64,000 nucleotides of DNA from Eledone cirrhosa (lineage: Eukaryota): positions 393,018,001 through 393,082,000 of the forward strand of contig OZ024741.1 in NCBI GenBank assembly GCA_964016885.1, read 5' to 3'. Below the pieces are notes generated by a model. It saw only the letters and a program-made list of their open reading frames with translations. It was not told the origin of the DNA and made no database searches. Below, in pieces: positions 9,443 to 39,557 of the stretch. The number at the start of each line of letters is the position of its first letter. The stretch's first letter is position 1. A program made the position numbers and the translations under genes.

Positions 9443-9730
9443 TCAGTTTGGGTGAAAAACTGGAGAACTGTGTCCGATATAAACGTGATGTTTACTGTAA
9501 TTTCCTCGCACTGGTTCCCATAAAAACACATAATAAATACCGAGAAAGAATGCTAGGCCAAATTCGAATCCAACATATAAGGAAATAAGAAGAAATTTTA
9601 TGGACATAATCTGGAAAAACGATGGTGGGACATGATCGCTGACACCAACTAATTTAGGTTGTGATGATAACTTCCTTCTGGGTTGATCTGGTGGTGTTGG
9701 AACGTCAAGGGTAACATCAGAAGGTGCCAT
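9443..9730 (-). CDS. Small single-pass membrane protein, InaF-motif-like (paralogue 1), 95 aa
   Basis: ATG-to-TGA ORF in non-repetitive sequence with a hydrophobic stretch KFLLISLYVGFEFGLAFFLGIYYVFLWEP. It is 20/34 identical, ungapped, to the ORF at 39324-39557. The LAxxLxxYYxxxWxP pattern matches my recollection of the InaF motif (human INAFM2 ...SLAAIVLAVYYSLIWQPV). Confidence 0.8.
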   Translation of the reverse strand: MAPSDVTLDVPTPPDQPRRKLSSQPKLVGVSDHVPPSFFQIMSIKFLLISLYVGFEFGLAFFLGIYYVFLWEPVRGNYSKHHVYIGHSSPVFHPN

Positions 9731-10514
9731 TCTCTAGTTGCGGTTTTATGATATAAAAGTTGGCTTCTAATACTGTTGCTGGCGTAGCAGTGTTTTTTTA
9801 ACGTCAGTAGAAACTGAGAAAGAATTGAATCAATGTAATTACGAAATTGAATCAAGATAATACTACCACGGATATTTATCAGAACATTATAATGGAATTT
9901 TCAGAAAAGAAGATTAGGAAACAGCCCAATTAAACACCCTGTGGTTTAAGTATCAAAAGCAAATTACAAGCTAATTAATATGATGGTAATAAATAGTTAA
10001 TAAATAAGTATTATTACTAATATACTCCTCCGTGTGTCGACGACTAATTCCCTGCATCGTAATCTAATAATTTATATTCACACCCTTGTTGTGTCATCCT
10101 TAATTATAAGCTTGTTTTGTCTAATAGATTTCGATTTTAGTTTACTTGTTCATAAACAATACGACAGTTTGAAACAAAGATATATTGTGAATATATATCA
10201 GCAAGTATGTGTACGTACGTACGGGTGCATGTATGTATGTATGTCGACGACTAAACCGTTAACCCACCAAATTTACTTGGTGAGGAGGGTAATTTGGGAC
10301 ACCCTGCAGTACAAAAAACAAAACCTGACAAAGGGCGGAAGAACTCATAAGAGTCAACGGCCATCCAAAAGTGTGTAAATATGTATATACACATGTACAT
10401 ATGTATGTATATGTATATGTGTATATACATGGATACATGTGTATGTATATGTGCGGGGCTATAGAAATAGTCGGGCTGGACACCCGATCGCGCGGTTAAA
10501 CCACTGGGAGTGAA

Positions 10515-10730
10515 GGACCCCTAGCCTTTGTCAGGGCATTCTTCTAGGAGAATGCAACTCAGGAAACTGGGATAATTCCGACATAAAACCTGCGGCTCAG
10601 TAGTTACCGATGATGTTGATCTTTTCTTCTTTTGGGGTTATAGCTACTGTCGCTCAGAGAGTGGGATTGGCTCAGTACACAGTCTTTCCTCACTTTAAAA
10701 AATATCTTCACACACAGGCATTGCACGATA
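10515..10730 (+). repeat. Dispersed repeat of unknown class (also at about 25695-25885 and 36230-36400)
   Basis: Shared core cccctagcctttgtcag...ctaggaga...aaacctgc...gatgttga...agagtggga...cactttaaaa in three diverged copies. Confidence 0.6.
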
Positions 10731-10929
10731 GAATTAATTAATAATTATTAATAATGGTATATCGTGCAATGGCCATACTTGATAACGAAGGGGCAGCCAT
10801 CATCATCATGTATGTATGTATGTATTTTCTATGTATGTATGTAATTATGTATTTATGTATATGCTTGTGCGTGTTACTTATTTGTAGAACAAAAACATTA
10901 CTTTCCTCCTGACCATTCCTAACCTAAAG

Positions 10930-13043
10930 AGTAAAGTGGGAAGCGTTTGTGGATAAGGAACTCGGGACTAGGTATGGAGATACTATTGCATCCAATTCAG
11001 AGAACTCCCTGAGAAAACTGAAGACGTTGAGACGGAGTGGAGACTGTTCAGTGAGGCAGTTTCTGTTTCAGCTGTTGAATGCTGCAGACGAAAGAGGCTT
11101 GGTGTGGCGCCGGACGGCAGGAAGACTCCTTGGTTCAATCAAGAGGTCAAAGATACCATCTGAGCAAAGAAGGAAGCTTACAAATCTTGGCTTGGAAATA
11201 AGTCCTCCTTCTTGCACTTGCACTACAAGCAGGCAAGAAGAATCGCTGCAGAGACAGTAAAAGCGTCCAAAGTTAAAATATGGGAGGAATTTGGAGTTAA
11301 ATTGGAATCCGCCTTCAGATCAGCAAATAAAGTGTTCTGGTAGACTATCCGCCGACTTCGTAATAAGAAGTCCTCCTCCACACCTGCTATCAGGAACGCG
11401 TCTGGGGTTCTCCTCTCTTCAGAGAGGTGCATCCTTGCGAGGTGGAAAGAATACTTTGCTGATCTCCTAAACCCGATTACAACAATATTTTCTGATGTAC
11501 ACGAGGTGCATCTGGGAGCAATGACTAATCTCTCAGAAGTTGAGGTCACAAGAGTAGTTAAAGAGCTCAAATATGGCATGGCCGCTGGGGAAGATGAAAT
11601 CCGGCCCGAGCTGTTAAAAGCCTTAAATGGAGAAGGTATTCTCTGGCTGACTCGTGTGTGCCAGGTGGCCTGGATCCCTGGGAAGGCACCTATGCAATGG
11701 CAATCAAGAGTGATAATCCCAATTTTCAAAAAGGGAGTCAAGAGAGATTGCTCCAATTACTCCCCTTTTTAAGCTTCCCTGGTAAAGTCTATGCTAAGTG
11801 CCTGGCAAAGAGATGCAGGGAGATTGTCGAGTCCAAGCTAGCTGTGTCGTTTTCGCCTCAGACGTAGCACAGCTGACCAAATGTTCACATTGTGGCAGGT
11901 ATTCAAGAAATAGTGGGAGTATTGCCAAGAAGTATATTCTTGTTTTGTCGACCTTGAGAAGACATATGAGTGCGTCCCTCATGAATTACTGTGGAAGGTT
12001 CTAAAGGAGTATGGGATCAATGTTCAGCTTCTTGTTGCCCCGATGTCTCTATTTGAATGCCTGAATAATTTTTTTTCGGATAAATGGTGCTAAATCGGAA
12101 CCATTCAAAAATATTTTTCTTGTCTATAATGTATTTCAATTGGTCTATTATGTTATATGCTGCTTAATCGAATTCATTCAATGTGGGAGTCTGTCTCCTC
12201 TCCTGTTCATTATGTTCATGAACAGGATTTACATGAGGAGCCAGGCTGGAAGTGGTATTACGAGTGACAGGTGTAAAATCAGTCGACTGGAATTCGCAAA
12301 TTACATGGTGTTACTTAACTCGACAGAAGGTGATCTCCACTCGCACTTGATAGGTTTGATGCCGAGTGCTACATGCCTGGAATGAAAATAAGTACTGCAA
12401 AAATTGATACACTCGTCCTCTCATGGAAGCCTACGTAGTGCACTCTTTTTGTGAATGGAGTTCCATTGAAGCAGGTAGAGAAGTTCAAGTATCTCGGGAC
12501 CGTGTTCTCGAGTGATGGAAAGCAGGAGGCTGAATTATGTGCAAGAATTGCAGGAGCTGGTGCAGTAATGTGCCAGTATTCATGCCAACCCTTACCTATG
12601 GTCATGAATCTTGGGTAATGACCAAAGGAATACAATCGAAATACAAGCGACCGAAATGAGGTTCCTTGGAGTAACGTTACTCGGAGTTCAGAGAGTCACT
12701 CCAAGTAGAGTCGCTCTTTCTTCTAATTGAGAGATCACAGCTCTGATACTATGGGCATGTGGTTAGAAGGCCTCAGGAAGAATCCCCGGAGAGATTTTAC
12801 GGGAAAAACAAACCGGCAGGAGACCCAGAGGTAGACTCTGAGCATGATGGTTGGATAACATCCATGAGCTTGGCTGGTCTCGCTTGGAGCTCCAGCCATT
12901 TCAGATGGAGACGATTGTTGCCGACAGAACCCGCTGGAAGGAGTGTTTGAGGACTCTGCCCTCTCAAAGAAGAAGAAGAAGAAGAAGAAGAAGAAGAAGA
13001 AGAAGAAGAAGAAGAAGAAGAAGAAGAAGAAGAAGAAGAAGAA
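10930..13043 (+). mobile_element. Degenerate RTE-clade LINE (RT) ending in a (GAA)n tail
   Basis: AAGEDEIRPELLKAL, IIPIFKKG..RDCSNY, VDLEKTYE, LSPLLFIMFM, FKYLG; tail at 12967-13043. Confidence 0.85.
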
Positions 13044-13482
13044 GGGCAGGAGAGCACTTTCACAAGCCCTTTCTAAAACACTCCTTAAACACCCCCAACA
13101 CCTCCCAACACCACTCTCAATCAATTAGCTCTCTTTTACCATTCACTATTTTCTTTCACCTCTTGTGTATATATATGCTTTAATTCCTTTAAATCTTCAT
13201 CAACACTCCTTCACTCCCACCCTCATTAACCCCCCCCCCCCCCCCCGATCAGGTTGACAATCGCCACCGACGAATGCGAGAAAGTTCTCCAGGAAATTTA
13301 ACCAGGAATCTTTAAAAAAATCTCCCCACCAAAGTTAACAAAGAACTTACTAGATCTACAAAACCAAATTGTAAAATTATAATATAAAATTAAATTGTTT
13401 AGAACTACAAGTGAAGTTATTCTTTTGCTTTTTTCAAATAACTGTACCAAGGATTTCACACATAAACCTAACTGTACCAAGG

Positions 13483-13605
<123 letters not shown>

Positions 13606-14859
13606 ATATTAAATAAATGGAAACTATATTTATAAAACCATATTTATTCTATTATATATATTTAAAGGGTACCAAAACTTTGTTACGCTTTCATCAGATA
13701 AAATACAAAGTTTGTTTTATAAATTTTGACATAACCAAGAAAAGATACCTTAAGGGTTCAAGTTTTTCTTGGATAGTGAAGGAAAAGAGAAGAAAAGTCA
13801 GATATTTCAAATTATTTAGATGTGTATGCAAATGCGGTTGAGGTAAAGGGCTGAAAAAACGTTATTTTAGACGCTCTGCAGAATTTAAATAATTAGGATA
13901 TATGTAGGAATTAACAATTTGCGGGAATGGTGGAATATGATTCCAGAATTTAAATTTATTTAGCTATATTATGAGTTATAATATTGTATATATAATCAAT
14001 TAGGTTATATGAAGAATTATGGTTGTAAGTAGATTTTATCTTATAGGTTGTAAGTATATAAATATCTATATAAATTAATAATTGTGCATGTTTAAGTATT
14101 ATAGAAATAGAAATAATTTACAATTATTAGTTGTTTACATTTCTAATATGAGTTACGGAGGATGTTGATTTTGCATTTTACATTAAAAAAAACACGTAGT
14201 TCAAGTTGTAAGAGAACAATTTGTAGATTCAAATATTTTGTTCCAGCATTGAAAATGTTTTCAGAATATTGTTAATTTAGCGAAGTTATATAGTTTATCA
14301 TACATATTATATTATAATATAATGTTTATGTTTGCACGATTGAAAAGGGAAAGATAACTCCAATCTTGTTTGTTAAGCGTTAAATTTGATGAATGATTTA
14401 CTCAGAAAATATATAGAGAAAATTATATATTATTTTGTGTGAGATTAATTTCAATTATATATTATTTTAGTCGAAAGATGTGTGAAAGTTTGAAAATCAA
14501 AAGAAGAGGGAAAAAGTAATGTGCATTTCGAAGAACTATCGTAAAGAGGATAAACTTTCAGAATGTCAATTAAAGATTATCAATCTACATCTAAAAAAAT
14601 ATATTTAGAAGGGTATCATTAAGAAAATAATGTCAAAAGCTAAAAATAGTAAAAAAATATATTAAAAAATTAAAAAATTAAAAAATTAATGTCAACTAGT
14701 AAAAATAGTAGAAATATAAAAAAAATTAAGAAGGAAGATCATTTAAAATAATTTAAATTTAAATTTAAATTTTTAAAGAAAATAGGATCATTTTGAAGGT
14801 GTATAAGATATAGTCAAGTGTAATGAATATCATAAATTAAAAATACTTCTGAAAGTGGA

Positions 14860-15500
14860 ATTTTGGCGATGTCTCCAACTAGAAAATAATTCTGTTTTAA
14901 GATTAATAGAGTTTTGACAGTTAATTATATAAAACATTTCCTCCATACACAAGTTACAGAATCTTGAGAAAGCCATATTTCGGTATGCAGGTGCTTTCGA
15001 AATCGTTCCCCAAGATATTGAATAGTCTATATTGTTGTCTTTTAAGTTCCAAATTAAATGTGAAAGTAAACTGGAAGATTTTTTATCGGATCTATTAAAT
15101 GTGTGTTTATGGTTATACCAGCGTTCTTTGAATTTTGTAGAAGTGGCACCAATATAGTTAAATACTTTGTCTCTAGTTTAAACTGTGCATTTATAAATTA
15201 TGTTTTTGTCTAAGCAATTATTTTGTAAAGGACAGTTGGATTTAATTCTACAGTTACAATTTCTGGAGTTGTTGTTCGGAACGGTACTATTATTCTGAAT
15301 ATTGTTGTTAGAAATATTATTATTGATATCTTGGTTAGTTTGGTTAGGGTTTAAATTTAAGTTGCTATTATTAATTCTATTTATATTTTGAGCTATGTTC
15401 ATAGTAGTAGAGTAGGATAGTTTTATAGTGTGTCTGTTAAAAATAGAGTGGTATCTGAAGTAATCTCTATTATACAAAACATTAAATTCAAAAGAAACCA
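14860..15500 (-). mobile_element. Penelope GIY-YIG endonuclease half
   Basis: IFNRHTIKLSYS...CNCRIKSNCPLQNNCL...YIGATSTKFKERWYNH...CNLCMEE. Confidence 0.85.
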
Positions 15501-15559
15501 ATTTATCGGCCAGGAGTACCTTAAAGGCCTCAAGAATAAAATCTAGAAAAAAACAAAGC

Positions 15560-16400
15560 GGATCCTGGTAAAATCTGACAAAACTTATATGGTATGGAAA
15601 AGGACGAATATAATAACCTTATATTGAAAGAACTCAGGAAAAACTACAAAATAACATCAAATGAAGATCTTTCAACGTTAAATAGGGAAGGTTCGGAAAT
15701 TATTTATAAATTAGGCATTCAAAATAGGACCGAACCCTTTATACCTAGAAAACCGGAGATTAACCTGAAGGACCACAAAAGAAATTTTGAAATTGAACTA
15801 CCAGTCAGACTCATAGTACCATCTAAATCGGACTTAGGCATAATTAGCAAGCATATATTAGATAGAATTATACCTCTACTTAAAGAAAAATCACACCTTA
15901 AACTATGGAACGGTACTAATGAAGTTATAGATTGGTTTAATAACATAAAATTAAAACATAACAAAAAATTCATTCAAATGGATATTGCAAATTACTACTC
16001 CTCTATTACCCCTAGCTTACTTAATAAGGCTCTTATCTACGCTTCTAAACATACAGACTTATCTAGTGAAGAAATGAATATAATTCTAACAGCACGTAAA
16101 ACCCTAATAGAATTTAATAAGCATCTCTGGACAAGAGCCGATAGAAAAACAATTTTGATATGACTATGGGATCATCTGACTCGGTGCAAGTAACGGACCT
16201 TGTTGGATTATTTATTAATAATGTACTGCATAGGAAAATGCCAGAGATGACCGGAGGTTTATATCGCGACGATATGTTACTTTTAATTGAAAACCATAGC
16301 AATAGTGAAATTAGTAGGAAAAGGAAATCCATAATACAATTTTTCAACAATTACAAACTTAATTTAGAAATCGAGAATAATTACAAAATCGTTATATATA
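15560..16400 (+). mobile_element. Penelope reverse transcriptase half
   Basis: LKDHKRNF...PVRLIVPSKSDLG...QMDIANYYSSI...MGSSDS...GLYRDDML. Confidence 0.9.
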
Positions 16401-16789
16401 TAAAATAAACATATGAAAGAATCACAGGGAAAAAAATAATACCAAATGCCGGGAATTTGTGTTAAGTTAGAAATTCAAAGAAATCAAATTCCTTCAAATT
16501 CAAATTAGTTAGTAATCCAAAGAAAATATATTCCTTCAAATTCAAATTAGTTAGTCTGGTCTATACCATTTTATCAGAATGAATATCGCTTCGTGTGGAC
16601 AGCGACTGAAGCAGTCAAGACGTGTGTTTCTTTGAAGCTAGATGTGAGAGTATATTCCACTTTTCTGCGTTACATAATCGGGATAATTTCCCCCATTAAT
16701 ATATGGGGTAGATTTTTCTAATATACTCCATTTAATGGAAAAAGGGTGTGCCTTTATTTTTTAAGGATACATACATGGTTTGCGAGCTG

Positions 16790-17540
16790 TGTGGCATGTT
16801 TTTTGTCATGATGTCTCATGGTTGTTCCATGGTTCAGGTACCGACTTTTGAACCGGATCCGACATGAGTTGAGGCTTCAGTTTGGTGGTCCTGGTTGGTG
16901 GAGGTCACTTCTGCTTGATATATCACCACCGGCGTGTTGCACTGGTGGTCAAATGGACATGTCTCTCGCTTTCTGCATGAGCACCAGTAAGGTGGGGTGA
17001 TTTTGCGTTTGCCGGTGATGTGGGTTTTAACGTTATTGGTACACGAGTAGCTTATTTTCACTGTATGGCGATTGAATAGCTGTCGGTATTTATGACCAAC
17101 ATGGAAATGGAGGACTAGGAGGGCTACGAATGTTCTACCTACATTGGTTTGCACATTAAATGCGAAAGGTAGCGTGAAACATATGACGTCTTTATGTCCA
17201 GGGTTTTTTTTTCTTTCTAGAACGGGGATCTGGAGAGTAAGTGATTTTTTTTCAGAGAAGACGCTGTTGTTTAGTGCTGAATTATAGTAGGGTGCTGCCA
17301 TATCAAAGATAGGGATACCCCCTTACTAATGTTATTGATAAGATTTTAAAAAATTATAGTAGTGTGGCTAGAGTCCTTATGAGTGTACCTAAGTGTCTCA
17401 GTGGGTTTGTGAAATGGTCTGTATGTGCATGTATGTAGGTCTAAATTAACGTCTAGGAAGTTAACATTGGTGAGGTTGGTGGATATAGTAATTATTAAGC
17501 CTAGGCTGTTGAAGGAAGTGATCAGGTTTTCTCGGAGTCA
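16790..17540 (-). mobile_element. Penelope RT/EN junction fragment
   Basis: AAPYYNSAL...LFNRHTVKISYSC...CSCRKRETCPF. Confidence 0.8.
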
Positions 17541-17667
17541 TATGGTTCGCACCACCTTTTGCACTTAATATGAAAAGCAATGTAGGTTAAAAAGATTCCA
17601 AGCTCTCCTATATATATATAAATATATAAGTATATATATATATATATATATAGTTTTAATATAGATG

Positions 17668-17718
17668 AGATTCTACAGGACTAGAACTGTTTCATTCTTT
17701 AGAAATCATCAGGAATCT
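17668..17718 (-). ncRNA. Type I hammerhead ribozyme (family C)
   Basis: Exact reverse complement of the motif at 27099-27149. Confidence 0.75.
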
Positions 17719-17974
17719 GGCTTTCCAAAATAAATAATCGTCTCTTTCTCCCTGTTTTCATATATATATATATATATTGAAGAGTTAAACAAAATTCAAT
17801 GAGAATATCAAAGAATGAGTTTTGCAGTAGATTGGAAGCACTCTACGAAAAATAATTTTCCAGAGTTATTAATATTAGAATATAAATATTAATAAAATAG
17901 ATGTTCTTTTGATTAAATCTTAACCATTTAACATCTCAGGGTATGTCATGTATCATTATATTTTGTCTGATGAG

Positions 17975-18164
17975 GGCGGTGAATTGGCAGTATCGGTAGA
18001 GGGTTGGACGCCATGCTTTGATGCATAGAGTTACGGCCCTAGCCATTCTGAGTTCAAATCCCGCCTAGGTTAACTTTGCCTTTCATCCTTACGGGGTCGA
18101 TAAAATAAAGTACCAGTAATGCACTGGGAAAATTGCCGGCCTTGTGCCAAAAGTAGAAACAATT
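17975..18164 (+). mobile_element. SINE family 1 inserted into a hammerhead-bearing pseudo-LTR
   Basis: Target-site duplication attatattttgtctgatgagggcg at 17955 and 18162. Confidence 0.9.
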
Positions 18165-18224
18165 ATATTTTGTCTGATGAGGGCGTACTGTTGTACATCC
18201 GAAATATGTATAATAAAATGTAAT
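18162..18224 (+). ncRNA. Hammerhead ribozyme (family A)
   Basis: attatattttgt-CTGATGA-GGGCGTAC TGTT GTACATCC-GAAA-TATGTATA-ataaaatgtaat. Confidence 0.75.
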
Positions 18225-18264
18225 TGATCAAAAGAACATCTATTTTATTAATATTTATATTCTA

Positions 18265-18527
18265 AAACTTGTTCATATGTAACCCATTTGCAACGCCGCA
18301 GCTCCCTTATTATCATATTTACACATATATTTTTTCCTCTGCTGCTACCTGTCTGTTTCGTTCTTTGTATCTTTACCCTTTCTAGCAGTCTCTCTCTCTC
18401 TCTCTGTTAGCCTCTTCCTCACCTTTCACTCACTCATTCTCTGTCACTACCTCTCCTCCTCCCCTTTCTTCCCGTTTGACCTGTCCGTAATCCTTTTCTC
18501 GCGCGCTCTTGGCCAAGCCGGTATGAA

Positions 18528-18618
<91 letters not shown>

Positions 18619-19045
18619 TCTCTCTCTCTCTCTCGCTCTCTCTCTCGTCTGCGACTTCACAGAACTTATGTTTACCGAATTCGCAGACCAGACCCCTTCT
18701 TCCTCCCGTTAGACCTGTGCGAAATTCCTTCCTTGCTCACATTTCAACCAGGTTTGATGGTCTTTATTCTCTCGTTCACGATTCCACCGAATTTATATTC
18801 ATAGAAATCTGGGACTTGTTTCTTTCTTCTTCGTCACTTTCTGTTGCTTAAACCATTTTGTTTGTTTACCCTAGCGTCCCCTTTATTTACGTGTCCCAAC
18901 GACTTTTTTTAGCCGTTGCTCGCACCAACCTGAGGTATATGGCCTTTAAAGCGAGGAAATGCCTACGACGGTTGGAAGGCCACTGATAAAGGACAAACTT
19001 TTTCATATGTAACCCATTTGCAACGCCGCAGCTCCCTTATTATCA

Positions 19046-19050
<5 letters not shown>
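18265..19050. mobile_element. Non-coding element with about 55-bp terminal direct repeat, related to 2437-3057
   Basis: aaactt.ttcatatgtaacccatttgcaacgccgcagctcccttattatcatattt at both ends; internal (CT)n. Confidence 0.6.
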
Positions 19051-19083
<33 letters not shown>

Positions 19084-19206
19084 AAATTAAGATAAATCAA
19101 AGTGAATTTAATCTAAATCAAAATTATGGGTGTCATGCCAGAAAGGCATGCGCCATATCACCCGTAAAATAAGCTCCAAGATTCTAAGGAATAGTTCCGA
19201 GCATTT

Positions 19207-19503
19207 TATAACAACTAGAAATTGATTAACATATAAATAAACATATGAAACAATCACAGGAGATAATTTTTACAAGTGTGTAAGCACATATAGCTAGGTA
19301 GGTAACTAAATAAAGTTAACTAGAACATCAAAAATAGATACCTTAAAATATGATAAATCATATTATAAGGTATCTATTTTTGAAGTTCCAGTTAACTTTA
19401 TTTAGTTACCTACCTAGCTATCTGTGCTTACACACTTGTAAAAATTATCTCCTGTGATTGTTTCATATGTTTATTTATATGTTAATCAATTTCTAGTTGT
19501 TAT
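19207..19503. repeat. About 300-bp near-perfect palindrome
   Basis: Arms 19207-19350 and 19360-19503 are reverse complements with few mismatches. Confidence 0.9.
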
Positions 19504-19519
19504 ATATATATATATATAT

Positions 19520-20203
19520 GGCATACGTTAAGACGGGCGTTCTGGAAAGTGAAAGTAAATTTATTTTCATTTTCGAACGTCGTGTTTACATTTTGTGTGT
19601 GTGTTTAGGTCTAAATGAGTGTCGTTTTAACTGATTATATATATATGTATATGTGTGTGAGTGTGTAGTTGACGGTTGAGAGAAGAGTACTCAATACCGA
19701 AGTAATGTTGTAATGAGGCTTGCAGAATGGTGAGTCCGCCATTCTAGACGCTGCTGCCTTGCAGAAGTCCCAAATCGAAGCTCTGACACTCTCGTCCCCA
19801 TCATTCAGCAGGGATTTTGCCAGGCAGCCGCATCATCTCCGATGGTTGGGCTTCCTATTTGGAAATTGAAGGTGGGATTTACGTTCATGATCTTGTGGTG
19901 CACGAACGGAACTTTGCAGATCCTGCGAACCTTGATGTGCACACACAGATCATAAAGAACACATGGAGCCGTGCAAAAAAGAAGCTTCGTCGCTAGCATG
20001 TGCAAGCCTCATTACAAGATTACTTCGGTATTGAGTACTCTTCTCTCAACCGTCAACTACACACACACACACATATACATATATATATAATCAGTTAAAA
20101 CGACACTCATTTAGATCTAAACACACACAGAAAATGTAAACACGACGTTTGAAAATGAAAATAAATTTACTTTCACTTTCCCGAACGCCCGTCTTAACGT
20201 ATG

Positions 20204-20205
<2 letters not shown>
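19520..20205 (+). mobile_element. Merlin-superfamily (IS1595/ISXO2-like) DNA transposon, internally deleted, with about 205-bp TIRs
   Basis: TIRs GGCATACGTTAAGACGGGCG...(19520-19724 / 20001-20205). Internal frames give EVPNRSSDTLVPIIQQ / ILPGSRIISDGWASY...HDLVVHERNFADPANLDVHTQIIKNTW. Sits in (TA)n. Confidence 0.88.
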
Positions 20206-20251
<46 letters not shown>

Positions 20252-20276
20252 TGTAATAAACAACATAAGGCAATTA

Positions 20277-20337
20277 TTTCATTTACCAGTGGTTTCTTAA
20301 AAGCAAACAAATTTTGTTTTCAATCATCAGAATGAAA
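20277..20337 (-). ncRNA. Type I hammerhead ribozyme (family D)
   Basis: Reverse complement of 24284-24343, with one extra nucleotide. Confidence 0.75.
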
Positions 20338-20444
20338 AAATCCCGGTGTATTTATTGCCATTGGATTTTAAAAACAAAAATATAATCTATATGAAAATGA
20401 GGCTTGAAAAGGAAGATGGAAAGGAAAAATAAACACACATGCAA

Positions 20445-22545
<2,101 letters not shown>

Positions 22546-25191: not shown

Positions 25192-25194
25192 ATA

Positions 25195-26154: not shown

Positions 26155-26170
26155 CGTATATATATGTGTG

Positions 26171-26256
<86 letters not shown>

Positions 26257-26514: not shown

Positions 26515-26666
<152 letters not shown>

Positions 26667-27149: not shown

Positions 27150-27237
27150 CATCTATATTAAAACTTTTATACTCTGCTATGATATTGAGTACCTTACTTA
27201 CTGTGGTTACTTCCGATTCAACCCGGAATAACTTACC

Positions 27238-27268
<31 letters not shown>

Positions 27269-27313
27269 ATGGTTGAGTGAGATTAGGCAGTGTGCCCTGT
27301 AGATTTTGTATAT

Positions 27314-28130
<817 letters not shown>

Positions 28131-28139
28131 AATAAAAAA

Positions 28140-28228
28140 AAAGATAGATGGCATGACAGGTTTTGACTATTGGGGTCGACTAGAAAAGCTCAAACTTTAT
28201 TTTCTCCAAAGTCGTCGTGAGCGCTACG
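28140..28228 (+). mobile_element. CR1-clade LINE C-terminal fragment
   Basis: IDGMTGFDYWGRLEKLKLYFLQSRRERY. Confidence 0.65.
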
Positions 28229-28293
28229 CCAGGTGGTGCTATTAAGTTAGACGTGGCCTGGGCCAATGCTGGCCGAAACCTATAAAAGTTATG

Positions 28294-28355
<62 letters not shown>

Positions 28356-28363
28356 CATATATA

Positions 28364-28660
28364 TTATAAAGAACGAGGATTCAGTGCTGCATCATATCAT
28401 ATTTATTAACAATGTTTCTCTATCGATCAGCTCGAGGCAAGATCTATAACAGATCGAACCTGATTCTGTAATCAAAAGTTCTTCAGATATATTTGGCATA
28501 TGAGATCGTCTCCGATTTTGTTTGTTCAAACACGTCAGCTGTTATTTATCTACAGCACATATTAGCATCCTGTTACTTCGAGCTGATCGCCAGAGAAACA
28601 TATGTAACATGTTAATAAATATGATATGATACAACACTGAATCCTCGTTCTTTATAATAT
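28364..28660. repeat. Inverted repeat with arms of about 75 bp
   Basis: tattataaagaacgaggattcagtg... / ...cactgaatcctcgttctttataata. Confidence 0.8.
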
Positions 28661-28729
28661 TATACTCTGCTCTGCACGAGCATCGAGTGCATACCGCCTA
28701 CGGACGCATTTATCTTGCAACCTTACAAC

Positions 28730-28803
<74 letters not shown>

Positions 28804-28810
28804 TGTGTGT

Positions 28811-28867
<57 letters not shown>

Positions 28868-29124
28868 AACATCTCTGTCTGATGACCGACCCAGACGTAT
28901 AATATTTTTGTCTGGCCTTTCACTCCCAGGTTTTTAAAAATATTGAAAAAATATCGTTAACTCTGCTGAGTCCCTCCGCCCTTTGCCGGGTCCTGTATTT
29001 CATCCAGCAGGGTGTCCAAATATCACCCACCTCACCAAGCTAGGTTTGTGGGGTTGCCGGTTTAGTCACCGACGATCCGACCATGAGAGGGGTTGTACTG
29101 GGTTACATGTTACCAGTAAAATTT

Positions 29125-29625
29125 AAAAAAACAGTAGAAAATGCTAGAGGGATTTTCTCTCAGAATAACATCAAAACATTTATTTACAAAATAGAAATTT
29201 CCGCATTTAATTGTACCGGTTTCAGCTTATACGTTTTTTCAACGACGGAAGTGTATAATGCAATTAAATTGCATATTAATAAGAATAATAAGAATGTGGG
29301 GGAAAAAAGTTCATTTAAAGCTGTTGGCCAACAGATTAGACTGCTGCCACCACTGTTGGTAAGGCTAAGGTCAACACTAAGAGAAAAAGAAAGAAAAATG
29401 TGGACTCTTCTCCCTAAATATGTATGTAAAAACAAACATTTTTTCCCTTATATTCTTATTATTCTTATTAATATGCAATTTAATTGCATTATACACTTCC
29501 GCCGTTGAAAAAGCATATAAAGCTGAAACCGGTACAATTAAATGCGGAAATTCCTATTTTGTAAATAAATGTTTTGATGTTATTCTGACAGAAAGTCCCT
29601 CTAGCATTTTCTACTGTTTTTTTTC
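29125..29625. repeat. Inverted repeat with arms of about 170 bp and a degenerate hammerhead-like core
   Basis: 29125-29295 versus 29452-29622; gTTGAAAA-AGC..GCT-GAAACCGGTA. Confidence 0.8.
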
Positions 29626-30738
29626 TTTTTTACTATTTTATGTATATATATCAACTGGCGTGTCACTTCTCTACATTCCATATATACAGAGAGAGAGAGA
29701 ATATATATAGAGAGCGAATATATATATAGAGAGAGAATATATAGAGAGAGAGAGAATGTTTAAACAGGTAATTAAAATCCTAGTCTTCAGAACATAGATA
29801 CACAACTATTGCCAGTGTCAGTGACATCATATAGAAAATCAGGAGTTACAAAAGGATGTTATACTACAGAAAACGCAGTATAAGGAGCAATAGTGAAAAG
29901 TGAAAAATTGAGCATATTATGTATAAAAAGATATTGTTTAAGGTACATGTGCAAAAGATACAATAAAAAAAGATGTAAGATAAGATAGATAAAAGATATC
30001 ATAGCATTGGAAATCAGGTAATGTTAAGGGTAGATAATGCAAAAGTTAATAAAATTAATAAAAGCATGCATGAGGTAAGAGTTGTATAATAAATAAAACA
30101 AACATATTTCATATAGAATGTAAAAGCATGTTAAAAGTGTTAGAAATGTTTAAAAAAATGTTTAATGGCATGCAATATGGTAGAGAGATATATGGGGATA
30201 AAATGGATAGATGTTATGTGAAATATAATGCAAAAAAACGTGATTAAATTAGATATGTTATTGTCATTCAAGAATTTTTATATTGGAGTTCGTATATAGA
30301 TGTATATATTGGGTGTAACACACATGTATTATCCATGGAAATCTCTTAATTTTAGATGTAATATTTTTGAGATGTTTATAGTTTTAAAATATGTGTTTGG
30401 TAAAGATAAATTCCACTGTATTACTGGTCATGTTATTATAGGAAATATATTATACAATGCATTCCTATCTTTAAATTTTCTATTAAGAAATACTAGAGTT
30501 TGTTTTATGTGCGAGTTCTATTAATAGTTATTAGGCAGAGTCGGAAGGTTGAGAAGTCGTTAAATTGTTTTAACGTTATGAATTAAAAAAATAAAGGAAA
30601 CGATATTCTCAAGAGGAGTTAATAACAAGGGGGGGGGGGGTTAATTAAGGAAGTAATTACAGTTGATAATAAAATAAGGGTTGTTTTATTATTGTAAATA
30701 AATTTTATTATCTATTGAAAGTTATCTTTCATTAAATA

Positions 30739-31100
30739 GTGATATATCTTGACTTTGCGAAGGCCTTTGACAAGGTCGACCACGGAATGATATGTCACAA
30801 ACTACACAAACTCAGCATAACTGGAAAAGTAGGTGAGTGGCTGCATGATTTCTTAAAAGACAGAAACAAGACAGTTGCAGCCAATGGGGGCCTCTCAAAG
30901 GAAACTTCAATAACAAGTGGGGTGCCCCAGGGCACAGTCTAGTGATTACTACTGTTTTTGGTGGATCTCTCAGACATGCCATCTGTAGTACTTACAACAT
31001 CCCTCACTAGCTATGCTGATGACACTAAGATAGCACAGGCAATCAAAAACCTAGCTGATGCTGCTCTTTTACAACAAGATCTGGATGCCATATACAAATG
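30739..31100 (+). mobile_element. CR1-clade RT fragment
   Basis: IYLDFAKAFDKVDH, SGVPQG, YADDTK, LQQDLDAIYKW. Confidence 0.88.
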
Positions 31101-31104
31101 GGAT

Positions 31105-31291
31105 AGGTTATTGGCAGTATTGGTAGAGGGTCGGACGCCATGCTTTGATGCATAGAGTTACGGCCCTTGCCATTCTGAGTTCAAATCCCGCCGAGGTTAA
31201 CTTTGCCTTTCATCCTTACGAGGTCGATAAAATAAAGTACCAGTAATACACTGAGTAATTTCTGGCCTTGTGCCTAACGTAGAAACAATTA
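31105..31291 (+). mobile_element. SINE family 1
   Basis: Same sequence as 6297-6484. Confidence 0.85.
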
Positions 31292-32221
31292 TATGGGATT
31301 AATAAATCTGTGCTACTCGATTGAACCGTTGAAAATATATAGTATTTTCTGCAGAAAACATCGGCTGATTAAGCTCATTTGCATACCGAGCGATTTTATG
31401 GCTGGCCTTGCCGAAAATTAGAATTTCATTTCTCGCTCTAACATAGCAGACTACATAAATGTAAGTAGAAAAACTATATCAGAATCTCAAAGGGGAGTAG
31501 AGACAGATTTATAAGATTAAATGCCAGGCGTGAAAGCAAAGTGTAGCTCAATGCTTATTCATGCGATTTTAATAAGCTTAGCGAAAGGCAGAGTTAGTGC
31601 TTAAGAAGAGTTAGAGTTCAATTAGGATATAAGCAAAGCATTTATAATCATACTTTCAAATAGGAGAATCAAGTTACACATATAAAATATGCTTATTTAT
31701 TTACAATTGTTTCATATGCCAAATATTTTAATGGTGCAATTTGAAAATGGAGGGATCACTCTAAACATTTAACATGAAATCACCGATATATTTATATTTG
31801 TACATACTCGTCAGAAGTAAACAAATATTAACAAGAATATCAGTTTAGAAATAACCATTACTTCAAGAATGAGGAAGAACAAAATGCATATATAAAACAC
31901 ATTCTAATATTGAAACTAAAGATATTATAATTCGAAATAAAAGATAGTACACACAGCTAATTATAACATTTAAAATATTATATATTTATTTTACTGCAAA
32001 GTCTAATACCATTAGGTGAGACTATTGCAATAACTGAAATTATAATCAAATATCTGCATAATAATATATTACTTTTAATTTTAAGCTAACAAAAAGAAAA
32101 ACACAGATCTATATAAATAGTACAAGAGAATTATGTTCAATTTAAATCGAATAATAATACACAACCATTAAATACATCTAACCAAAACAACCAAAATAAC
32201 ATTTCAAATAATAATATCAAT

Positions 32222-32590
32222 ATTTCAGCGCATCAGCCTCGCCATCACCCGAGGCAACGCTGCGAGTGTGCTGGCTTGCCTCAAAAATCATTATAGAGGT
32301 TGCCCAGTACTCCTCGCGACGTTGCTGTCTTTTGCTCTGGTGTTGACTCCGTTATTCATCCCTTCCTTTACATTTTCTTTAATATTGTAACATTAAAAGA
32401 ATATATCTTTCTGAAAGAATCGCGAGCTATTTATAATGTTGTCTAAGCATTTGTAATGTTATTTATGTATATATTTAAAACATATTTGTTATGTTATTCT
32501 ACTGTAATTTTATTTATATGCTCTCTTTATATTTTCATTCTGAAAGAATTGCAAACGATTTGTAATGTATTTATGAAATAAATAACTTTA
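32222..32590 (+). mobile_element. CRE-clade non-LTR element 3' end
   Basis: FQRISLAITRGNAASVLACL (end of the restriction-like endonuclease) followed by an AT-rich UTR. Confidence 0.7.
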
Positions 32591-32676
32591 TATATCAATA
32601 AGCCGCTACTTGTCACTATTAATAACCAAAACATTACTTTATATTAACACACACAATATTATGATATTGCATTTTA

Positions 32677-32815
32677 TAATTGTTTCTACTTTTGGCACAA
32701 GGCCAGCAATTATCCCAGCGTATTACTGGTACTTTATTTTATCGACCCCGTAAGGATGAAAGGCAAAGTTAACCTCGGCGGGATTTAAACTCAGACCATG
32801 AAAGGCCGTAACTTG
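32677..32815 (-). mobile_element. SINE family 1, 5'-truncated
   Basis: Reverse complement of the SINE body. Confidence 0.8.
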
Positions 32816-32879
32816 CTGCAATATTATTTAATATTATTAAATATTGCATTTAATAATATTAATCCTTCATATTAACTCT

Positions 32880-33280
32880 ATAATTAATCCAAATTGTAAC
32901 TGTAGAAATAAAACATTATGCCCACTTGACTGTAATTGTTTAACTGATAATATAGTATATGGTTGCACAGTTAATACATCTCGATGTTCTAAACTATACA
33001 TAGTTTCAAAAGAAAATTTAATTCTCATCATTCTTTTAGAAAACCCAAAACATTAGCTAGCGCTATCTGGGAATGGAAAAACTAAGAATTTACCCTACAC
33101 ATTGAATTAGAATATATTAGGTAGATCCTCAGCCTATAAACCAAGTAATAGAATTTGTCGATTATGTCTCCTTGAATCTCAGCTCATCATTAAATCCAAA
33201 TCTAACCTCTTAAATAGGAAATCTGAAATCTCCACTTGCCTACATAAAGACCTACAACCGTTCATTATCATAAACTCAAT
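32880..33280 (+). mobile_element. Penelope GIY-YIG fragment
   Basis: CNCRNKTLCPLDCNCLTDNIVY...ICRLCLLES...LLNRKSEI. Confidence 0.8.
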
Positions 33281-33366
33281 ACTGGATAATTAACAACAAT
33301 ATGCTTCAACTATTGCTTAATTCTATATTGAATTCATAATAATGTAATAATCGATCAATATTTTTT

Positions 33367-33723
33367 CGCGGTGGATTAGGAGTATCGGTAGAGAGTCGGA
33401 CGCCATGCTTTGACGCATAGAGTTACGGCCCTTGCCATTCTGAGTTCAAATCCCGCCGAGGTTAACTTTGCCTTTCATCCTTACGGGGTCGATAAAATAA
33501 AGTACCAGTAATGCGCTGGGATAATTGCTGGCTTTGTGCCAAACAGTAGAAACAATTATTTTTTCGAGCGTCGGACGCCATGCTTTGCAGCATAGTTACG
33601 TCCCTTTACGGTCTGAGTTCAAATCCCGTCGAGGTTAACTTTGCCTTTCATCCTTACGGAGTCGATAAAATAAATTACCAGTAATGCACTGGAATAATTG
33701 CTGGCCTCGTGTAGAAACAATTA
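33367..33723 (+). mobile_element. Two tandem SINE family 1 copies (second is 5'-truncated)
   Basis: 33367-33556 and 33566-33723. Confidence 0.85.
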
Positions 33724-33830
33724 TTTTTTCTGATTTAAATAGGATATCTGATACATATATATACTTAACAGAATATATTTATTTATTTAATACAGTATAT
33801 TATCGTATCTGAAAATCTGGTCGGGGGTGA

Positions 33831-34133
33831 TGTAGTGACCTACATTCCGCAGGCTCACATACATTCTCTGTGCGTGATTTGGCTCAGTTCAGCCAATCAG
33901 CGCCAGTAGAAGAGGATGTATCCCTACGCGCCCTGAGGAAGAAATTCCCCGCGAAGATTTGAAGAATCTCTCTCTTGTACCGGAAGCTTCAAGCCAGCAA
34001 CACGCATAATGTAACGGTGAGATCTTGCACCCTAGCCTCGCCGGCTTAACGGCGCAATGGCACATTCCCTTTTGTAACCTCTTTTTATCCGTAACTTCAA
34101 CCATATAAGTTAACAAACATTGTTTGTACTACA
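33831..34133 (+). mobile_element. LTR of an LTR retrotransposon (probably a 3' LTR)
   Basis: TGTAGT...ACTACA termini (inversion extends to TGATGTAGT/ACTACATCA), preceded by a G-rich PPT-like tract ggtcgggggtga; internal CCAAT box; no target-site duplication seen. Confidence 0.65.
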
Positions 34134-34429
34134 TCAAAAAATAAACATACATTTCATCTCTAATTACTGCTGTTGAAATCATTATTATGTTACTCGTGTC
34201 TCAATAACATCTATAACTAATACTGCTAAATACTCTATAATTTTAACACCGGTATACTCCCGTGGATTCCTTACCCTGAGGTAAATTTGAAAATATATTA
34301 TATTTATATTATTATATTTTCCTTATTCCTTTTTACATCTAATTAAATATTATTGATTATTTAATAATCATTATAGTCTAGATATCTCTTTAATAATATA
34401 TACATATTTTCTATGTTAATTCTGCAGTC

Positions 34430-36000
34430 TGCCTCCTGGCAACATATCCATGCATGATTTTTTTTTGCTGAATTCACTGCAGTTTCCCTGTGTGTGAGTT
34501 TTTGATTATCATGCAGGGAGTGTCTTTTAAGGCGTTCCTTGATTAGGTCGGTAGTTTTCTGCCAAGTGTGTATCTTTGTTCTTGGGACCAATATTGATTG
34601 TGCTAGTGTCAACCACCCTGGTATATGTGCATCTACCTTGAAAACTTGTTGGTAGAGGTCGATAAGATACAATATAAGTTTTTTACTAGTAGCCGTCAAT
34701 CAACTCTCTTCCTGGTGTTTTCTTATCTTAGAGTTTTCCTATCACAGTCTCAAGGGTATCATCATTTATTCTATCTTTTTGTTGTAGTGGAGGAGCAATA
34801 GTTCTTTTGGATTTCCTTTAGCCATACTGCATCTTCTTTTCACTCCATACTCTTCTTTTCACTCCATAGTTTTCTCCAGAAGGAATCTATGTCTTTCTGG
34901 GATGGGACCTCAGTGACATATATTACTTTGCCCTTCATATCTCTATAGACTGGTATTTGGTTTCGTCTGAATCTTTTATTAAGTACTTTTCTTTAATCTA
35001 CGTTTCTCGCTGACAGCTCTCAATTCTTTGATGAGAATGATCAGCTTATATTGAAGAGTTCTAGTTGTACTGTCACCAAACACGTTTCTATTTTATTTTT
35101 CACTCTTTGTTGGTGAGGAGTGAAGTTTTTTTTTGTTTTTGTTTGCATGTAATGAACATTGTCACATATCCTATAGTTTTTCGTAGGTTAGTAATCTTTT
35201 TTCTACTTTTGTAATATATGGTGGTATTTTTAGTGATGTTTTGTTTTGTTATCACCAAGATAATGCTTCACTGTCGTTGCCAGGCATATAAACAAGCGTT
35301 GATTTGCCAAAATGTAAGGGTTTGAATTTGTTGTAAATATTCACCCGCAATTTCATCAATAGCATGCAGGGTTCCATTATTTGTTTTCATTTTGTTTAGT
35401 ACTGTTGTTATATTACGTTCCACCAGAGAAATGTTTATAGTATAAATTTCTCTCTGGAAAGTTTCGCTGAGAATATATTTCAATTGTTTATACCCTTGAT
35501 TGACCAAGCTAATGGCAGATGTATTATTATTAACAGTGTTTTTCACAACAGTCGAGGTAGAATCAGTTGATACACGTGGTTTCAAATTTCTTACCGGCAT
35601 AGTTATTTCATGGGACTGTTCAAGTATTTCTGTTGTTTGTTGATGTTCTGCCTGGCTGCTAGAAAGTCTAGTAGAGTGGCAGCCTGTAGCACGTGTTGTT
35701 GACTGCATGTTTGTTCTGGGGGACTTACAATTAATAATGTTCATGTTATTTTTATGTTCAACAAATGTCGCTTGTTGGTGTAATTGTTTGGTTGTGAAGT
35801 GGCTGAGCTTTGGGTGTATTTCGTCCCAGTATAGCTTCATTCTGTTCAAATAGCCAACAGAAGGGTCTTTGTTTTGCCATTTTATAACAATAAATCATTA
35901 TTAAGTTCGTAACTCCAAGAAAAATGTGATTTTTCTTGTTGTTGTTTTTTTCCTCGGTTTTTCACTAATGTTGTTTTTATCTTCATCCATGCTGCTTGTA
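34430..36000 (-). mobile_element. Degenerate R4/Dong-like non-LTR retrotransposon 5' part
   Basis: GYLNRMKLYWDEIHPKLSHFTTKQL and IPGWLTLAQSILVP resemble the R4/Dong ORF; many stops and frameshifts. Confidence 0.6.
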
Positions 36001-36562
36001 GCAAATCCTTGTAGTTAGTATTTAGTCAGATATCTCTACAAATTCGAATAAAATGTGCCTTCAGTGGGTATAGTTAGAAGAATACCCAGTGTGGGAGATA
36101 GTATTCATCTCAAATTTAATTAATAGTCTCCCACACCAAAATGTACGACTGGTCGCGTTGATTGTATGTATGTATGTATGGAAATACTCGGTTTGTTGCC
36201 CGAGCACTCGGTTAGCCCACAGGGCGGGAGAGACCCCTAATTCATCTTAGGAAATCGTTCTAGGAAAAAGAAAACTCTGACGTAAAACCTGCGACTTGAT
36301 CGCAACCAATGATGTTGACCTGTTTGGATACCTGTCACCGTTGTTCAGCGGAGAGTAGGATTAGTCCAGTGCAAGACCTTTCTTCACTTAAAAGAGTTTC
36401 AAGTACAGACACCACTTGATCTAAACAACTTTCACGTGTTGTGTGAACATGGCCTTTTCTTTTTTCTTTCACTGCAGCATATACAACAAGGAATCTAAGT
36501 CCTTGCAAGGGCTAAAAGGTCATGCTCGGGCCACACATCTATAAGAAACCGAGATGCAACCA

Positions 36563-36593
<31 letters not shown>

Positions 36594-37199
36594 TGTATGT
36601 ATGTATGTATGTATGTATGTTATCTCTTTCTCTTAATTTCGAGTATATTTTTTTTGACCGGCCACCTTCCTGGTGGCAAGGTTGTAAAAGAAAAGAAATT
36701 GTCATCCCTTGAATCGCAAGAATGTTTTGCAAATTTTGAAGGTGCCAGCTATCGCAGCCATTTGTAGACTATGAATTAGGGAGCTGCGCTTTTTGTCCGC
36801 AAATCCAAGTTCAGTCATACTTTGGTCCAAGTGGGTTGGTATATAACCCGTAGCTCCAATAATGATGGGTATGAAGCTAAAGTTGTATCTTGGATACTGG
36901 ATTTGTAAACTCCTATGTATGTATGTATGTATGTATGTATGTATGTATGTATGTGTGTGTGTATGTATGTATACATGTAGTGACTAACGGTAACAGCATG
37001 AATCAACTAATGAAAAATTGTCGTACTCTTTCGTTTGATCGTTCTATCTCTCTGAAAAATCTCAGATGGATGTTGCTTCTTGGTCCCAGAATTGCAAAGA
37101 TGTTATTCCGGAAGATAGCAAGGGTGATCGGAAACGTTACAAGTAAAAAACAGTGGAACTGTAGTACGTTAAGTAGTTTAATAGTCTAGAAAACAAATA

Positions 37200-37680
37200 A
37201 TTCTATAGATTCCTCGATTCGATATACTTAACTTCTATCCCTTCCCTGGAATTTCCTAAAACATTCACCAATATTAACGATTTCAAAACCAAGATTATAG
37301 TGAACACCGGGAAAACACCGTTATATAATAGTACTTTCTATTGAGATTAAATAGAGAGCGACTTCTTATTCGGCTTTCTGTGGGAATCTAAGACGCTGTA
37401 GAAATATTTGATCTCGGAGAACTTTTTATTTTAAATATTTTCAACAGACGAAACACTTCCATATCTCCAGAGAGTTTATCAATTTCGTACAACATAAATG
37501 ACCAGATAGATAGACTTAAAAGAGAGCTGATACGAATAGGTAAAGAATTCAATTCTAACATCACTATTATCTTTTCATATATTAGTTTATATCTGAGTAT
37601 TACAGACAAACACGACCCCTATAAAAAGCCACCCTATAACTCCAATCATAATAAAGAACATCACAGAGGGCAAAAGTAAA
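37200..37680 (+). mobile_element. Highly degraded Penelope RT fragment
   Basis: FDILNFYPS...DAVEIFDLGELFILN...IDRLKRELIRIGKEFN.NITI...PYKKP aligns by eye with the 23380-23931 RT. Confidence 0.6.
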
Positions 37681-38059
37681 TCATTTCCTCCCTATTAACA
37701 GTGCAAGATGTTAATGGAATTAATATAGGTGGCGAAATTTTATAAAAGATTTTATTTAAAAAATCATGTCATTCCGAAAGAAGAACACTTTCAACAGTTT
37801 AAGCGTAACATTAATGACATCGGTCTCTCCGATCTCAGAATATTTGTGGAGGCAATGAAAACTGACTCTGTCTTCCTCCTCCAGACATACCAAATAATAT
37901 TTCATTAATTTTTTTGACTGGCTTCAGTCATCAGACTGCGGTTATGCTGGGGCGACACCTCGAGTAAATGGATCAAATCGCCCAAGTACATTTTTTTAAA
38001 GTCAGGTACTAATTTTATCGATAGTTTGCTGACAATTCCTGGTATTTTAGAATTTTATT

Positions 38060-38430
38060 CCGTTCGGCTACGAGTGCAATGACCTTCAACTTCGCCGCAA
38101 CATCTAGAAATGGAAATGAGCAAAAGAGACGCTAACTGTGAGACAAAAAGTTAAACCACCAGTCCTCTTCTCATTAAATTTAGACAATCCGTCTGATTCT
38201 AGAATTGGGAGTATGCTGAATATAGCCAAGGCCCTCATGATTCAACTTGGTATGACGAGCGACGTGACTTGCATTCAGATAGCAAGACAATCCATGAAGA
38301 TTCGTGAAGTCAACGGGCCTGCCATAACATTTATAACCACCATATAGATCGGCTCCGATTCTGGATGCAGTAGCGATGTGGAGCTCATCAAGACTGAGTA
38401 GGTCACCGTGCAAAGTATCGACCCACTCTC
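38060..38430 (-). mobile_element. CRE-clade fragment (zinc knuckle and restriction-like endonuclease region)
   Basis: GDLLSLDELHIATASRIGADL...C...LHGLSC...ARHTKLN. Confidence 0.7.
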
Positions 38431-39323
38431 CGAAAATTTAACACTGGTTTTAAATAAAACACAAATATGCTATGAAGCTGTTTTATGGTGTCATCAACAA
38501 TGTTTACGGTTAACAATTAATATGGAAGAGTGATAGAAAAAACATAGAAACTCTTGCTTATGATATTATCGATATCATCGCACATTGATATATCAACTGG
38601 CTAAGGCCATGGGGATTATTTCTGTAATTATTTATCTTTTTGCTTCAAGCATTTCTCCGTGTTTTGTGTGTGTTTCTAGTGTCTTCTTTTAGTTAAACCC
38701 TTTACCATAAACCTTGCTTCAGGTTTTGTCTTTCTTGTAGTCATTTCGTAACACTGACTTCTTTTGTGGTAATTTTCGTTCCTCTATCACTGAGAACGTT
38801 TATTTTACTTTAAAAAATACATGTATAATCTAAAACACCAAATGACATACTACCATTCTCTCACCTTATCCACTTCTCTCTTCCCTTATTTCTAACTCTT
38901 TCACGTCTTCTCTCTCTTTCATTATTCTTACTCATTCATTCGCATACGTCATTATTCTTCTCTTCCTCTCCTTTTTCTCTCTCTTTCTCACTCTTTATCT
39001 AAATATATACAGTTCCTTTTCTTTTTTTATCCCAATCAAAATCTACCTCCACATTTTCTTTTCTTTTTCCAACGTCTTCCCATCCCCCTTTACCTTTCAA
39101 TATCATATGCGAATCTCTCTCTCTCTCTCTCTCTCTCTCTTTACCTCTCGACCACCCTATATATCTGTTATTTTAATACGTTACTTCTCTGTGGTTTAAA
39201 GAATATTACATTTCATTTCTGACTAATCCACTGACAAAACTTGAACATTAATTAATCTATGAATGTTTGACCTAACGAAGACTATCTAAACTATGTTGAA
39301 AAATGTTAAACATTCATCTTACC

Positions 39324-39557
39324 TTATAAAGGATGTGTCATAGAAGGTAAATTACTTGTGTAGATTCGGTGCTGACTGTAATTACCACGAACTGGTTGCC
39401 AAAAGAAAATATAATAGCCAGTCAAAACAACAGCCAGTGATAGTACAAAACCCATATATAACCCGACCAAAGTTAACTTTTGCATTAAGTTAGAAACATC
39501 TGAAACAGTTTTTCTTTCTTCTGAAATTCCAACACCTATAGCTTTCTTACCCGGCAT
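39324..39557 (-). CDS. Small single-pass membrane protein, InaF-motif-like (paralogue 2), 77 aa
   Basis: ATG in an AAAATATG context, TAA stop. KLTLVGLYMGFVLSLAVVLTGYYIFFWQPV closely resembles the InaF motif. Differences from paralogue 1 in the VRG codons are synonymous (GTG/GTT, CGA/CGT, GGA/GGT). Confidence 0.82.
   Translation of the reverse strand: MPGKKAIGVGISEERKTVSDVSNLMQKLTLVGLYMGFVLSLAVVLTGYYIFFWQPVRGNYSQHRIYTSNLPSMTHPL

Follow-up and report, generated by a model that had tools for sequence, protein, structure and literature searches.

We analysed a window of 64,000 nucleotides on chromosome C2 (OZ024741.1; C2:393018001-393082000 of a 3.0-Gb assembly). It contains two short open reading frames, ORF A and ORF B, which encode small proteins of the InaF family (Table 1). 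Both frames are intact where the first-pass annotation had placed them, and both are located on the minus strand, which had been left unspecified. As reported there, the two proteins share 20 of 34 residues, without gaps, in a block extending from LYxGF to the Tyr after HxxY, and the codons of the VRG motif differ synonymously (Val GTG/GTT, Arg CGA/CGT, Gly GGA/GGT). Different synonymous codons encode 11 of the 20 identical residues. In tblastn searches within the window, one ORF used as query recovers the other with an E value of 4e-13 (24/50 residues identical), and the next match has an E value of 1.2. The similarity continues to the C-terminal end, with the two stop codons in the same register (HPx followed by the stop). 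The flanks are unrelated, as initially described, since blastn of 7 kb around each ORF yields only short matches beyond a 144-nt core (77%); these are at most 84 nt long (E 2e-5 or weaker) and lie mostly over a simple-repeat stretch. ORF B is single-copy DNA, with one DNA match in the genome, and three DNA-like sequencing runs from one sample span it without a joint and contain no variant inside the ORF. An A is found at position -3 of the ORF A start codon, and all eight InaF ORFs of this genome have an A or G there.

Table 1. Features of the InaF array; positions refer to the window unless marked C2
Feature	Position	Strand	Description
In-window part of array	9443..39557	(-)	Copies I3 (ORF A) and I4 (ORF B)
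ORF A, array copy I3	9443..9730	(-)	95 aa InaF-family microprotein, predicted single-pass; PF15018 25.2 bits
InaF motif/predicted membrane helix of ORF A	9512..9601	(-)	Residues 44-73; Pfam, hydropathy, AlphaFold model
Subfamily tail of ORF A	9446..9514	(-)	PVRGNYS, NYS sequon, four His, ends HPx; predicted extracellular
Splice-donor-like site, ORF A	9398..9406	(-)	39 nt past stop, moderate score, predicted
Second donor-like site, ORF A	9330-9338	(-)	107 nt past stop, predicted
ORF B, array copy I4	39324..39557	(-)	77 aa InaF-family microprotein, predicted single-pass; PF15018 26.3 bits
InaF motif/predicted membrane helix of ORF B	39393..39470	(-)	Residues 30-55; Pfam, hydropathy
Subfamily tail of ORF B	39327..39395	(-)	Alignment with other copies
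Strong splice-donor-like site, ORF B	39317..39325	(-)	1 nt past stop, 10.5 bits, predicted
Array copy I1	C2 (OZ024741.1) 392951602-392951865	(-)	87 aa; outside window
Array copy I2	C2 393008663-393008938	(-)	91 aa; outside window
Array copy I5	C2 393085569-393085754	(-)	61 aa; outside window

The first-pass annotation had described two paralogues. The pair is real, but the copy number is five: a genome search with ORF B adds three nearby relatives, and the proposed tandem family comprises five copies, all on the minus strand (5/5), distributed over 134 kb in the order I1, I2, I3 (ORF A), I4 (ORF B) and I5 along C2. I5 is independently confirmed as the sole genome match of the database protein P0252 (E 1.4e-8). 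No sixth copy was found with profiles run over all open frames of at least 20 residues in 364 kb around the array. Three more InaF genes map to C2 at 193.84, 193.92 and 406.68 Mb, so that the 3.0 Gb searched contain eight family-like loci in three places on one chromosome, copy counts that represent lower bounds. The gene at 193.84 Mb is an ordinary INAFM2 orthologue (62 bits), near-identical to Octopus bimaculoides 'InaF motif containing 2'. It is located 79 kb from the divergent 193.92-Mb InaF gene on the same strand (C2:193838287-193917511). In each gene of this pair the stop is followed by a strong donor-like site, at a distance of 69 or 89 nt, and the two may form another small cluster organised in the same way. 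The eighth gene (C2:406677298-406677558; 87 aa, 55.6 bits) immediately follows a long trinucleotide repeat and is 13.6 Mb away from the array, with no neighboring InaF copy within the 100 kb scanned around it. A candidate for a ninth copy, at C2:193.986 Mb (E 0.003), was rejected as a microsatellite frame, with no copy in a further 200 kb, and six weak genome-wide PF15018 matches (E 3.6-8.2) were dropped because no InaF-like ORF is present at these positions.

We compared the array proteins to known families and found that ORF A and ORF B match PF15018 (InaF-motif) and no other Pfam family. With 25.2 and 26.3 bits, they score above the gathering cut-off of 21.8 bits, in line with the initial family assignment. 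I2 passes as well (27.8 bits), whereas I1 and I5 (17.6 and 17.9 bits) remain below the cut-off, which is thus passed by three of the five copies; InaF is still the best Pfam family for I1 and I5 (E 0.003-0.004). InaF clusters are also top-ranked for ORF A in the ESM Atlas (0.91). The array copies are far more divergent in the helix than INAFM2: their scores are 17-28 bits, compared with 62 for the ordinary InaF gene, the genome's true INAFM2 orthologue at C2:193.84 Mb, and their helices are without most of the KWVRLATVLAY stretch that is strongly conserved in ordinary INAFM2. Trees built from about 60 columns separate the array and its counterparts from INAFM2, with a support of 95/93 for the array. 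Its position outside the INAFM2-containing group is supported by 96/93 in one tree and by 95/90 in a second, in which the divergent 193.92-Mb gene is unplaced; the details of these trees are rough, with long branches and unsettled bootstrap. Neither the trees nor the helix, which does not keep KWVRLATVLAY, thus indicates orthology of the array copies to INAFM2.

Each of ORF A and ORF B contains one hydrophobic stretch of 21 residues by hydropathy. In the AlphaFold model of ORF A, a single helix covers residues 38-78, with pLDDT values of about 90-97 over residues 41-70 and a mean of 69. No solved InaF structure was found by sequence search or Foldseek. The N-termini of the array proteins are variable and partly basic. 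Their C-termini share, in I1-I4 and in the same end register, a tail of the form W.P[VI]RGNYS.H..Y.....H (also summarised as PVRGNYSxHH..HP), which carries an NYS sequon about 11 residues past the predicted helix and 2-4 histidines. A sequon at about 11 residues from a membrane helix is marginal for glycosylation. Judged from alignment, the I1-I4 tail appears to be a new conserved feature within the known InaF family. Human INAFM2 is predicted to have its N-terminus inside and its C-terminus outside, and it is N-glycosylated (PMC13012068). From the prediction for this protein, we infer that the array proteins would adopt the same N-in, C-out topology, with the tail outside. They also have in common with INAFM2/ROME and its mollusc orthologues the InaF helix pattern Y..YY..W.P. 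Directly after the helix, the W.PVRG of the array (window 9503-9520 and 39384-39401) resembles amniote INAFM2, which reads WQPVRG, and is unlike mollusc INAFM2 (W.PELK). This likeness to the amniote proteins is either convergence or an old feature.

We investigated whether these genes are under selection. In a 50-codon ungapped core of the four tail-bearing copies I1-I4, dN is 0.19-0.49 and dS is at least 1.4 or saturated, values for which two of four methods mostly failed from saturation. In all six pairs, codon position 2 is more conserved (identity 0.72-0.92) than position 3 (0.30-0.50), and the selection on the protein suspected from the VRG codons is thus seen across the core as purifying selection. 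Clear counterparts in other organisms exist for four of the five copies (I1, I3, I4 and I5). Two of these come from O. bimaculoides, the source of the closest named relatives (74-77% identical), in agreement with the probable cephalopod origin proposed initially: A0A0L8FRJ6 is the counterpart of ORF A (74% identical, tree support 99/93) and A0A0L8FQV9 that of I1 (77% identical, tree support 98/98). By blastp, the counterparts of ORF A are P0004 (O. bimaculoides) and P0003, with 74-75% identity. The ORFs had been called hidden, which does not hold for ORF A insofar as its O. bimaculoides counterpart is already a UniRef entry; it does hold insofar as this entry bears no family name. Both A0A0L8FRJ6 and A0A0L8FQV9 are listed as 'uncharacterized', and no function, array or paralogy was found for them in the papers searched. 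ORF B has a counterpart in P0247, an ENA record (51% over 77 columns), which begins with the same MPGKK.

The counterparts were reached via alignment searches, since a single-sequence homologue search with ORF B gave no candidate and both ORFs are absent from the protein collection by exact sequence. In an alignment search, the array tail occurs in three of the best 120 of 456 proteins, namely A0A0L8FRJ6, A0A0L8FQV9 and a Logan protein that is a counterpart of ORF A. When 1.84 billion representatives were scanned with a profile, 13 matches emerged, among them P0247 and two I2/I3-like proteins, and all five with E <1e-10 carry the tail. The tail-bearing type is likely restricted to cephalopods. 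A single metagenome match proved to be fortuitous, lying in a bacterial permease-like frame. Several database proteins of the subfamily (P0245, P0246, P0256-P0259) seem to be extended by a TGA read as Trp, which masks their small size. In P0245 and P0246, the Trp of the longer C-termini aligns with the TGA of two array copies, and these extensions look like TGA codons taken as Trp by the gene caller.

Retrotransposon pieces and simple repeats are abundant in the window, and chance ORFs, pseudogenes or transposon fragments could be mistaken for genes in such a setting. The first-pass annotation had asked whether many dispersed copies would betray a transposon; instead, the genome contains at least eight family-like loci in 3.0 Gb, in three places on one chromosome, and ORF B has a single DNA match. 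Together with the intact frames, the selection signal and the counterparts elsewhere, this makes an origin as debris exceedingly improbable. Saturated synonymous sites at a dN of 0.19-0.49 and counterparts for four of the five copies identify the array copies as old selected genes rather than transposon remnants.

What might these proteins do? In the fly, INAF-B binds TRP and each protein needs the other for stability; without INAF-B, TRP protein falls to 5-10% while its mRNA is unchanged (PMC3433705). Of the four fly INAFs, three (INAF-A to C) are listed as associated with TRP, and co-precipitation with TRPC1 is described for human INAFM2 (PMC13012068). Loss of human INAFM2 leaves TRPC1 levels unaltered, and this protein (also called ROME) binds beta-catenin and vimentin as well. 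The genome analysed here contains seven TRPC-type genes (TRP_2 domain), none of them on the array chromosome C2. We consider it on balance probable that ORF A and ORF B are selected members of a five-gene InaF subfamily acting as auxiliary subunits of TRPC-type channels, because TRP channels are the sole partner common across the family; the strong divergence of the helix tempers this view. In such a mechanism, each array protein would cross the membrane once, with the N-terminus inside and the tail outside. Its helix would pack on the membrane domain of the channel and, like fly INAF-B, would stabilise or tune the channel post-translationally. A function specific to the subfamily would come from the shared tail, through its sequon and histidines, and the presence of five copies would enable different cells to combine distinct subunits with one of the seven TRPC-type channels.

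The array partner may have changed, as the lack of most of KWVRLATVLAY and the scores of 17-28 versus 62 bits suggest. The subfamily would then regulate another membrane protein, or it would form a small surface glycoprotein or scaffold like human INAFM2/ROME. This alternative, which we regard as plausible but short of even chances, draws on the long branch that separates the array from ordinary INAFM2, on the new conserved tail and on the non-TRP partners of ROME, beta-catenin and vimentin. It has to contend with the position of the residues kept in all eight InaF copies of this genome (Y, YY and P), which lie in the InaF helix, whereas the cytoplasmic parts are not conserved between array copies.

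Within the preferred reading as TRPC-type channel subunits, the first-pass annotation had linked the genes to rhabdomeric eyes. Such a photoreceptor module, in which the copies partner a visual TRP channel of the retina, would follow the fly precedent of INAF-B with TRP (PMC3433705). In the available portion of an Euprymna berryi atlas, a TRPC-group gene indeed marks both photoreceptor types (PMC12240821, supplementary file 4). However, none of the 1,836 retina marker rows seen in this atlas carries an InaF label, and at least one InaF-labelled gene, among the rows listed, marks two neuron clusters of the optic lobe instead, the Dopaminergic_4 and Glutamatergic_3 cells. This represents weak evidence against a role in the eye, because the labelled gene is assigned to the ordinary inaF-D/INAFM orthogroup, and array-type genes could be unlabelled or unannotated in that dataset. 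A photoreceptor promoter motif is not enriched: four of the five copies lack it in the 1 kb upstream, and I5 has two sites there. We think that a dedicated photoreceptor function is unlikely. No InaF entry occurs in the supplements of PMC9839350, PMC9712504 (searchable files), PMC9815951 and PMC9795677.

We next consider the structure of the genes. Donor-like splice sites are located shortly past four of the five stop codons, including those of ORF A and ORF B (Table 1) and sites at 12 nt in I1 and 13 nt in I2. Among random 50-nt windows, 0.6% contain a site that scores as high as that of ORF B. The first 100 nt past the I5 stop contain no good donor; a strong one is present at 197 nt. Compared with random windows of the region, donors after stops are in excess both in the five array copies (Fisher p 0.0096, 0.055, 0.0089 and 0.031 for 50, 100, 200 and 300 nt) and in all eight InaF genes (p 0.078, 0.0069, 0.0023 and 0.014), in a test based on splice frequencies and on windows that were picked after the sites had been seen. 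There is no excess of acceptors before start codons (p 0.29-0.82). From these two patterns, each array ORF is probably a coding first exon that is followed by an intron in the 3' UTR.

In Drosophila, INAF-B is encoded in a first exon (PMC3433705), and inaF-A to D have a common 3' UTR (PMC4528330). By analogy with this precedent, the array could be one complex locus in which five coding first exons are spliced to a single shared non-coding 3' exon. All five copies are co-oriented. Of 145 filtered open frames of at least 75 residues in the array and its surroundings, 99 were compared with Pfam; the 7 with a match are of transposon type or, in one case, a sub-threshold DUF, in a scan that short exons of other genes would escape. 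The donor-like sites 1, 12, 13 and 39 nt past four of the five stops, without an acceptor excess, fit as well. However, donor-like sites also occur in two dispersed InaF genes, 69 and 89 nt past the stop, and a 3' UTR intron may thus characterise the family as a whole, each gene having its own last exon. Good acceptor-like sites lie upstream of two array copies (I1, 11.2 bits at -72) and would instead fit a non-coding exon at the 5' end. For two relatives, the read-through tails reveal no frame-compatible overlap (13/37, 19/40 and 16/40 shuffles were as good), which is a weak test. The P0245/P0246 tails contain no sign of a shared exon, their best regional match (E 0.17) being upstream of the array. 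Taken together, we rate a shared 3' exon as possible but rather unlikely. It concerns gene structure and can be combined with a role as TRPC subunits. Human INAFM2 is a single-exon gene, unlike the layout proposed for the array.

We compared the array to the Drosophila inaF locus, which encodes INAF-A to -D (Cheng and Nash 2007; Chen and Montell 2020; both as represented in PMC3433705, PMC4528330 and PMC13012068). In both cases, small InaF-motif proteins, single-pass in the fly and predicted to be so in the array, lie side by side, each with its ORF in one exon, and the donor-like site past the stop in the array fits a 3' UTR intron. Unlike the four fly genes, the array consists of five copies over 134 kb with a conserved PVRGNYS/His tail. 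An independent origin of the array and the fly cluster is suggested by trees in which the array groups apart from the arthropod rows used, which included no named fly protein. No description of cephalopod InaF genes was found in the non-subscription literature searched, and PMC13537343, PMC4423912 and PMC9776813 provided nothing further. The array is real and, as a tandem subfamily within an established family, apparently undescribed; its conserved tail is new, and its organisation hints at the layout of the fly locus.

The eight InaF genes beside seven TRPC-type genes are named candidates for co-expression with cephalopod TRP channels. Outside the fly eye, TRPC auxiliary subunits are not known in any detail, and there has been little work on the assembly and tuning of TRP channels in cephalopods. 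Should a 3' exon be common to the copies, a rare gene layout would either have arisen twice in the same family or be ancient. It is conceivable, but in our view quite improbable, that cephalopods independently built a fly-like complex inaF locus, in which five first exons with their own promoters and one shared 3' exon would supply cell-type-specific TRPC subunits, and in which a histidine-rich outer tail would tune channels in the eye, brain or skin, for example by proton or metal sensing. If neither the TRPC role nor the shared exon holds, the array would represent an ordinary lineage expansion of a small family that is unnamed in annotation.

Other elements were seen in and around the array. 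The nearest recognisable gene downstream, at about 80 kb, is an uninterrupted p25-alpha (TPPP-like) ORF of 102 bits (L021:2499-3062 (+), C2:392870499), possibly a retrocopy. A 788-codon acidic open frame with no Pfam match (L039:5991-8354 (-), C2:393117991) is found 32 kb upstream of I5 on the same strand and resembles a large exon of a disordered protein. Non-LTR retrotransposon pieces occupy 59069-60403, 57153-57887 and 49062-49682 of the window, with a reverse transcriptase frame that includes a PHD-like finger, and a tandem repeat of about 30 nt at 48288-48992 gives rise to an open frame that is long and repetitive. A Helitron Rep/PIF1 helicase is present in several broken frames at about 100 kb downstream of the array (L082:6682-10000 (-)).
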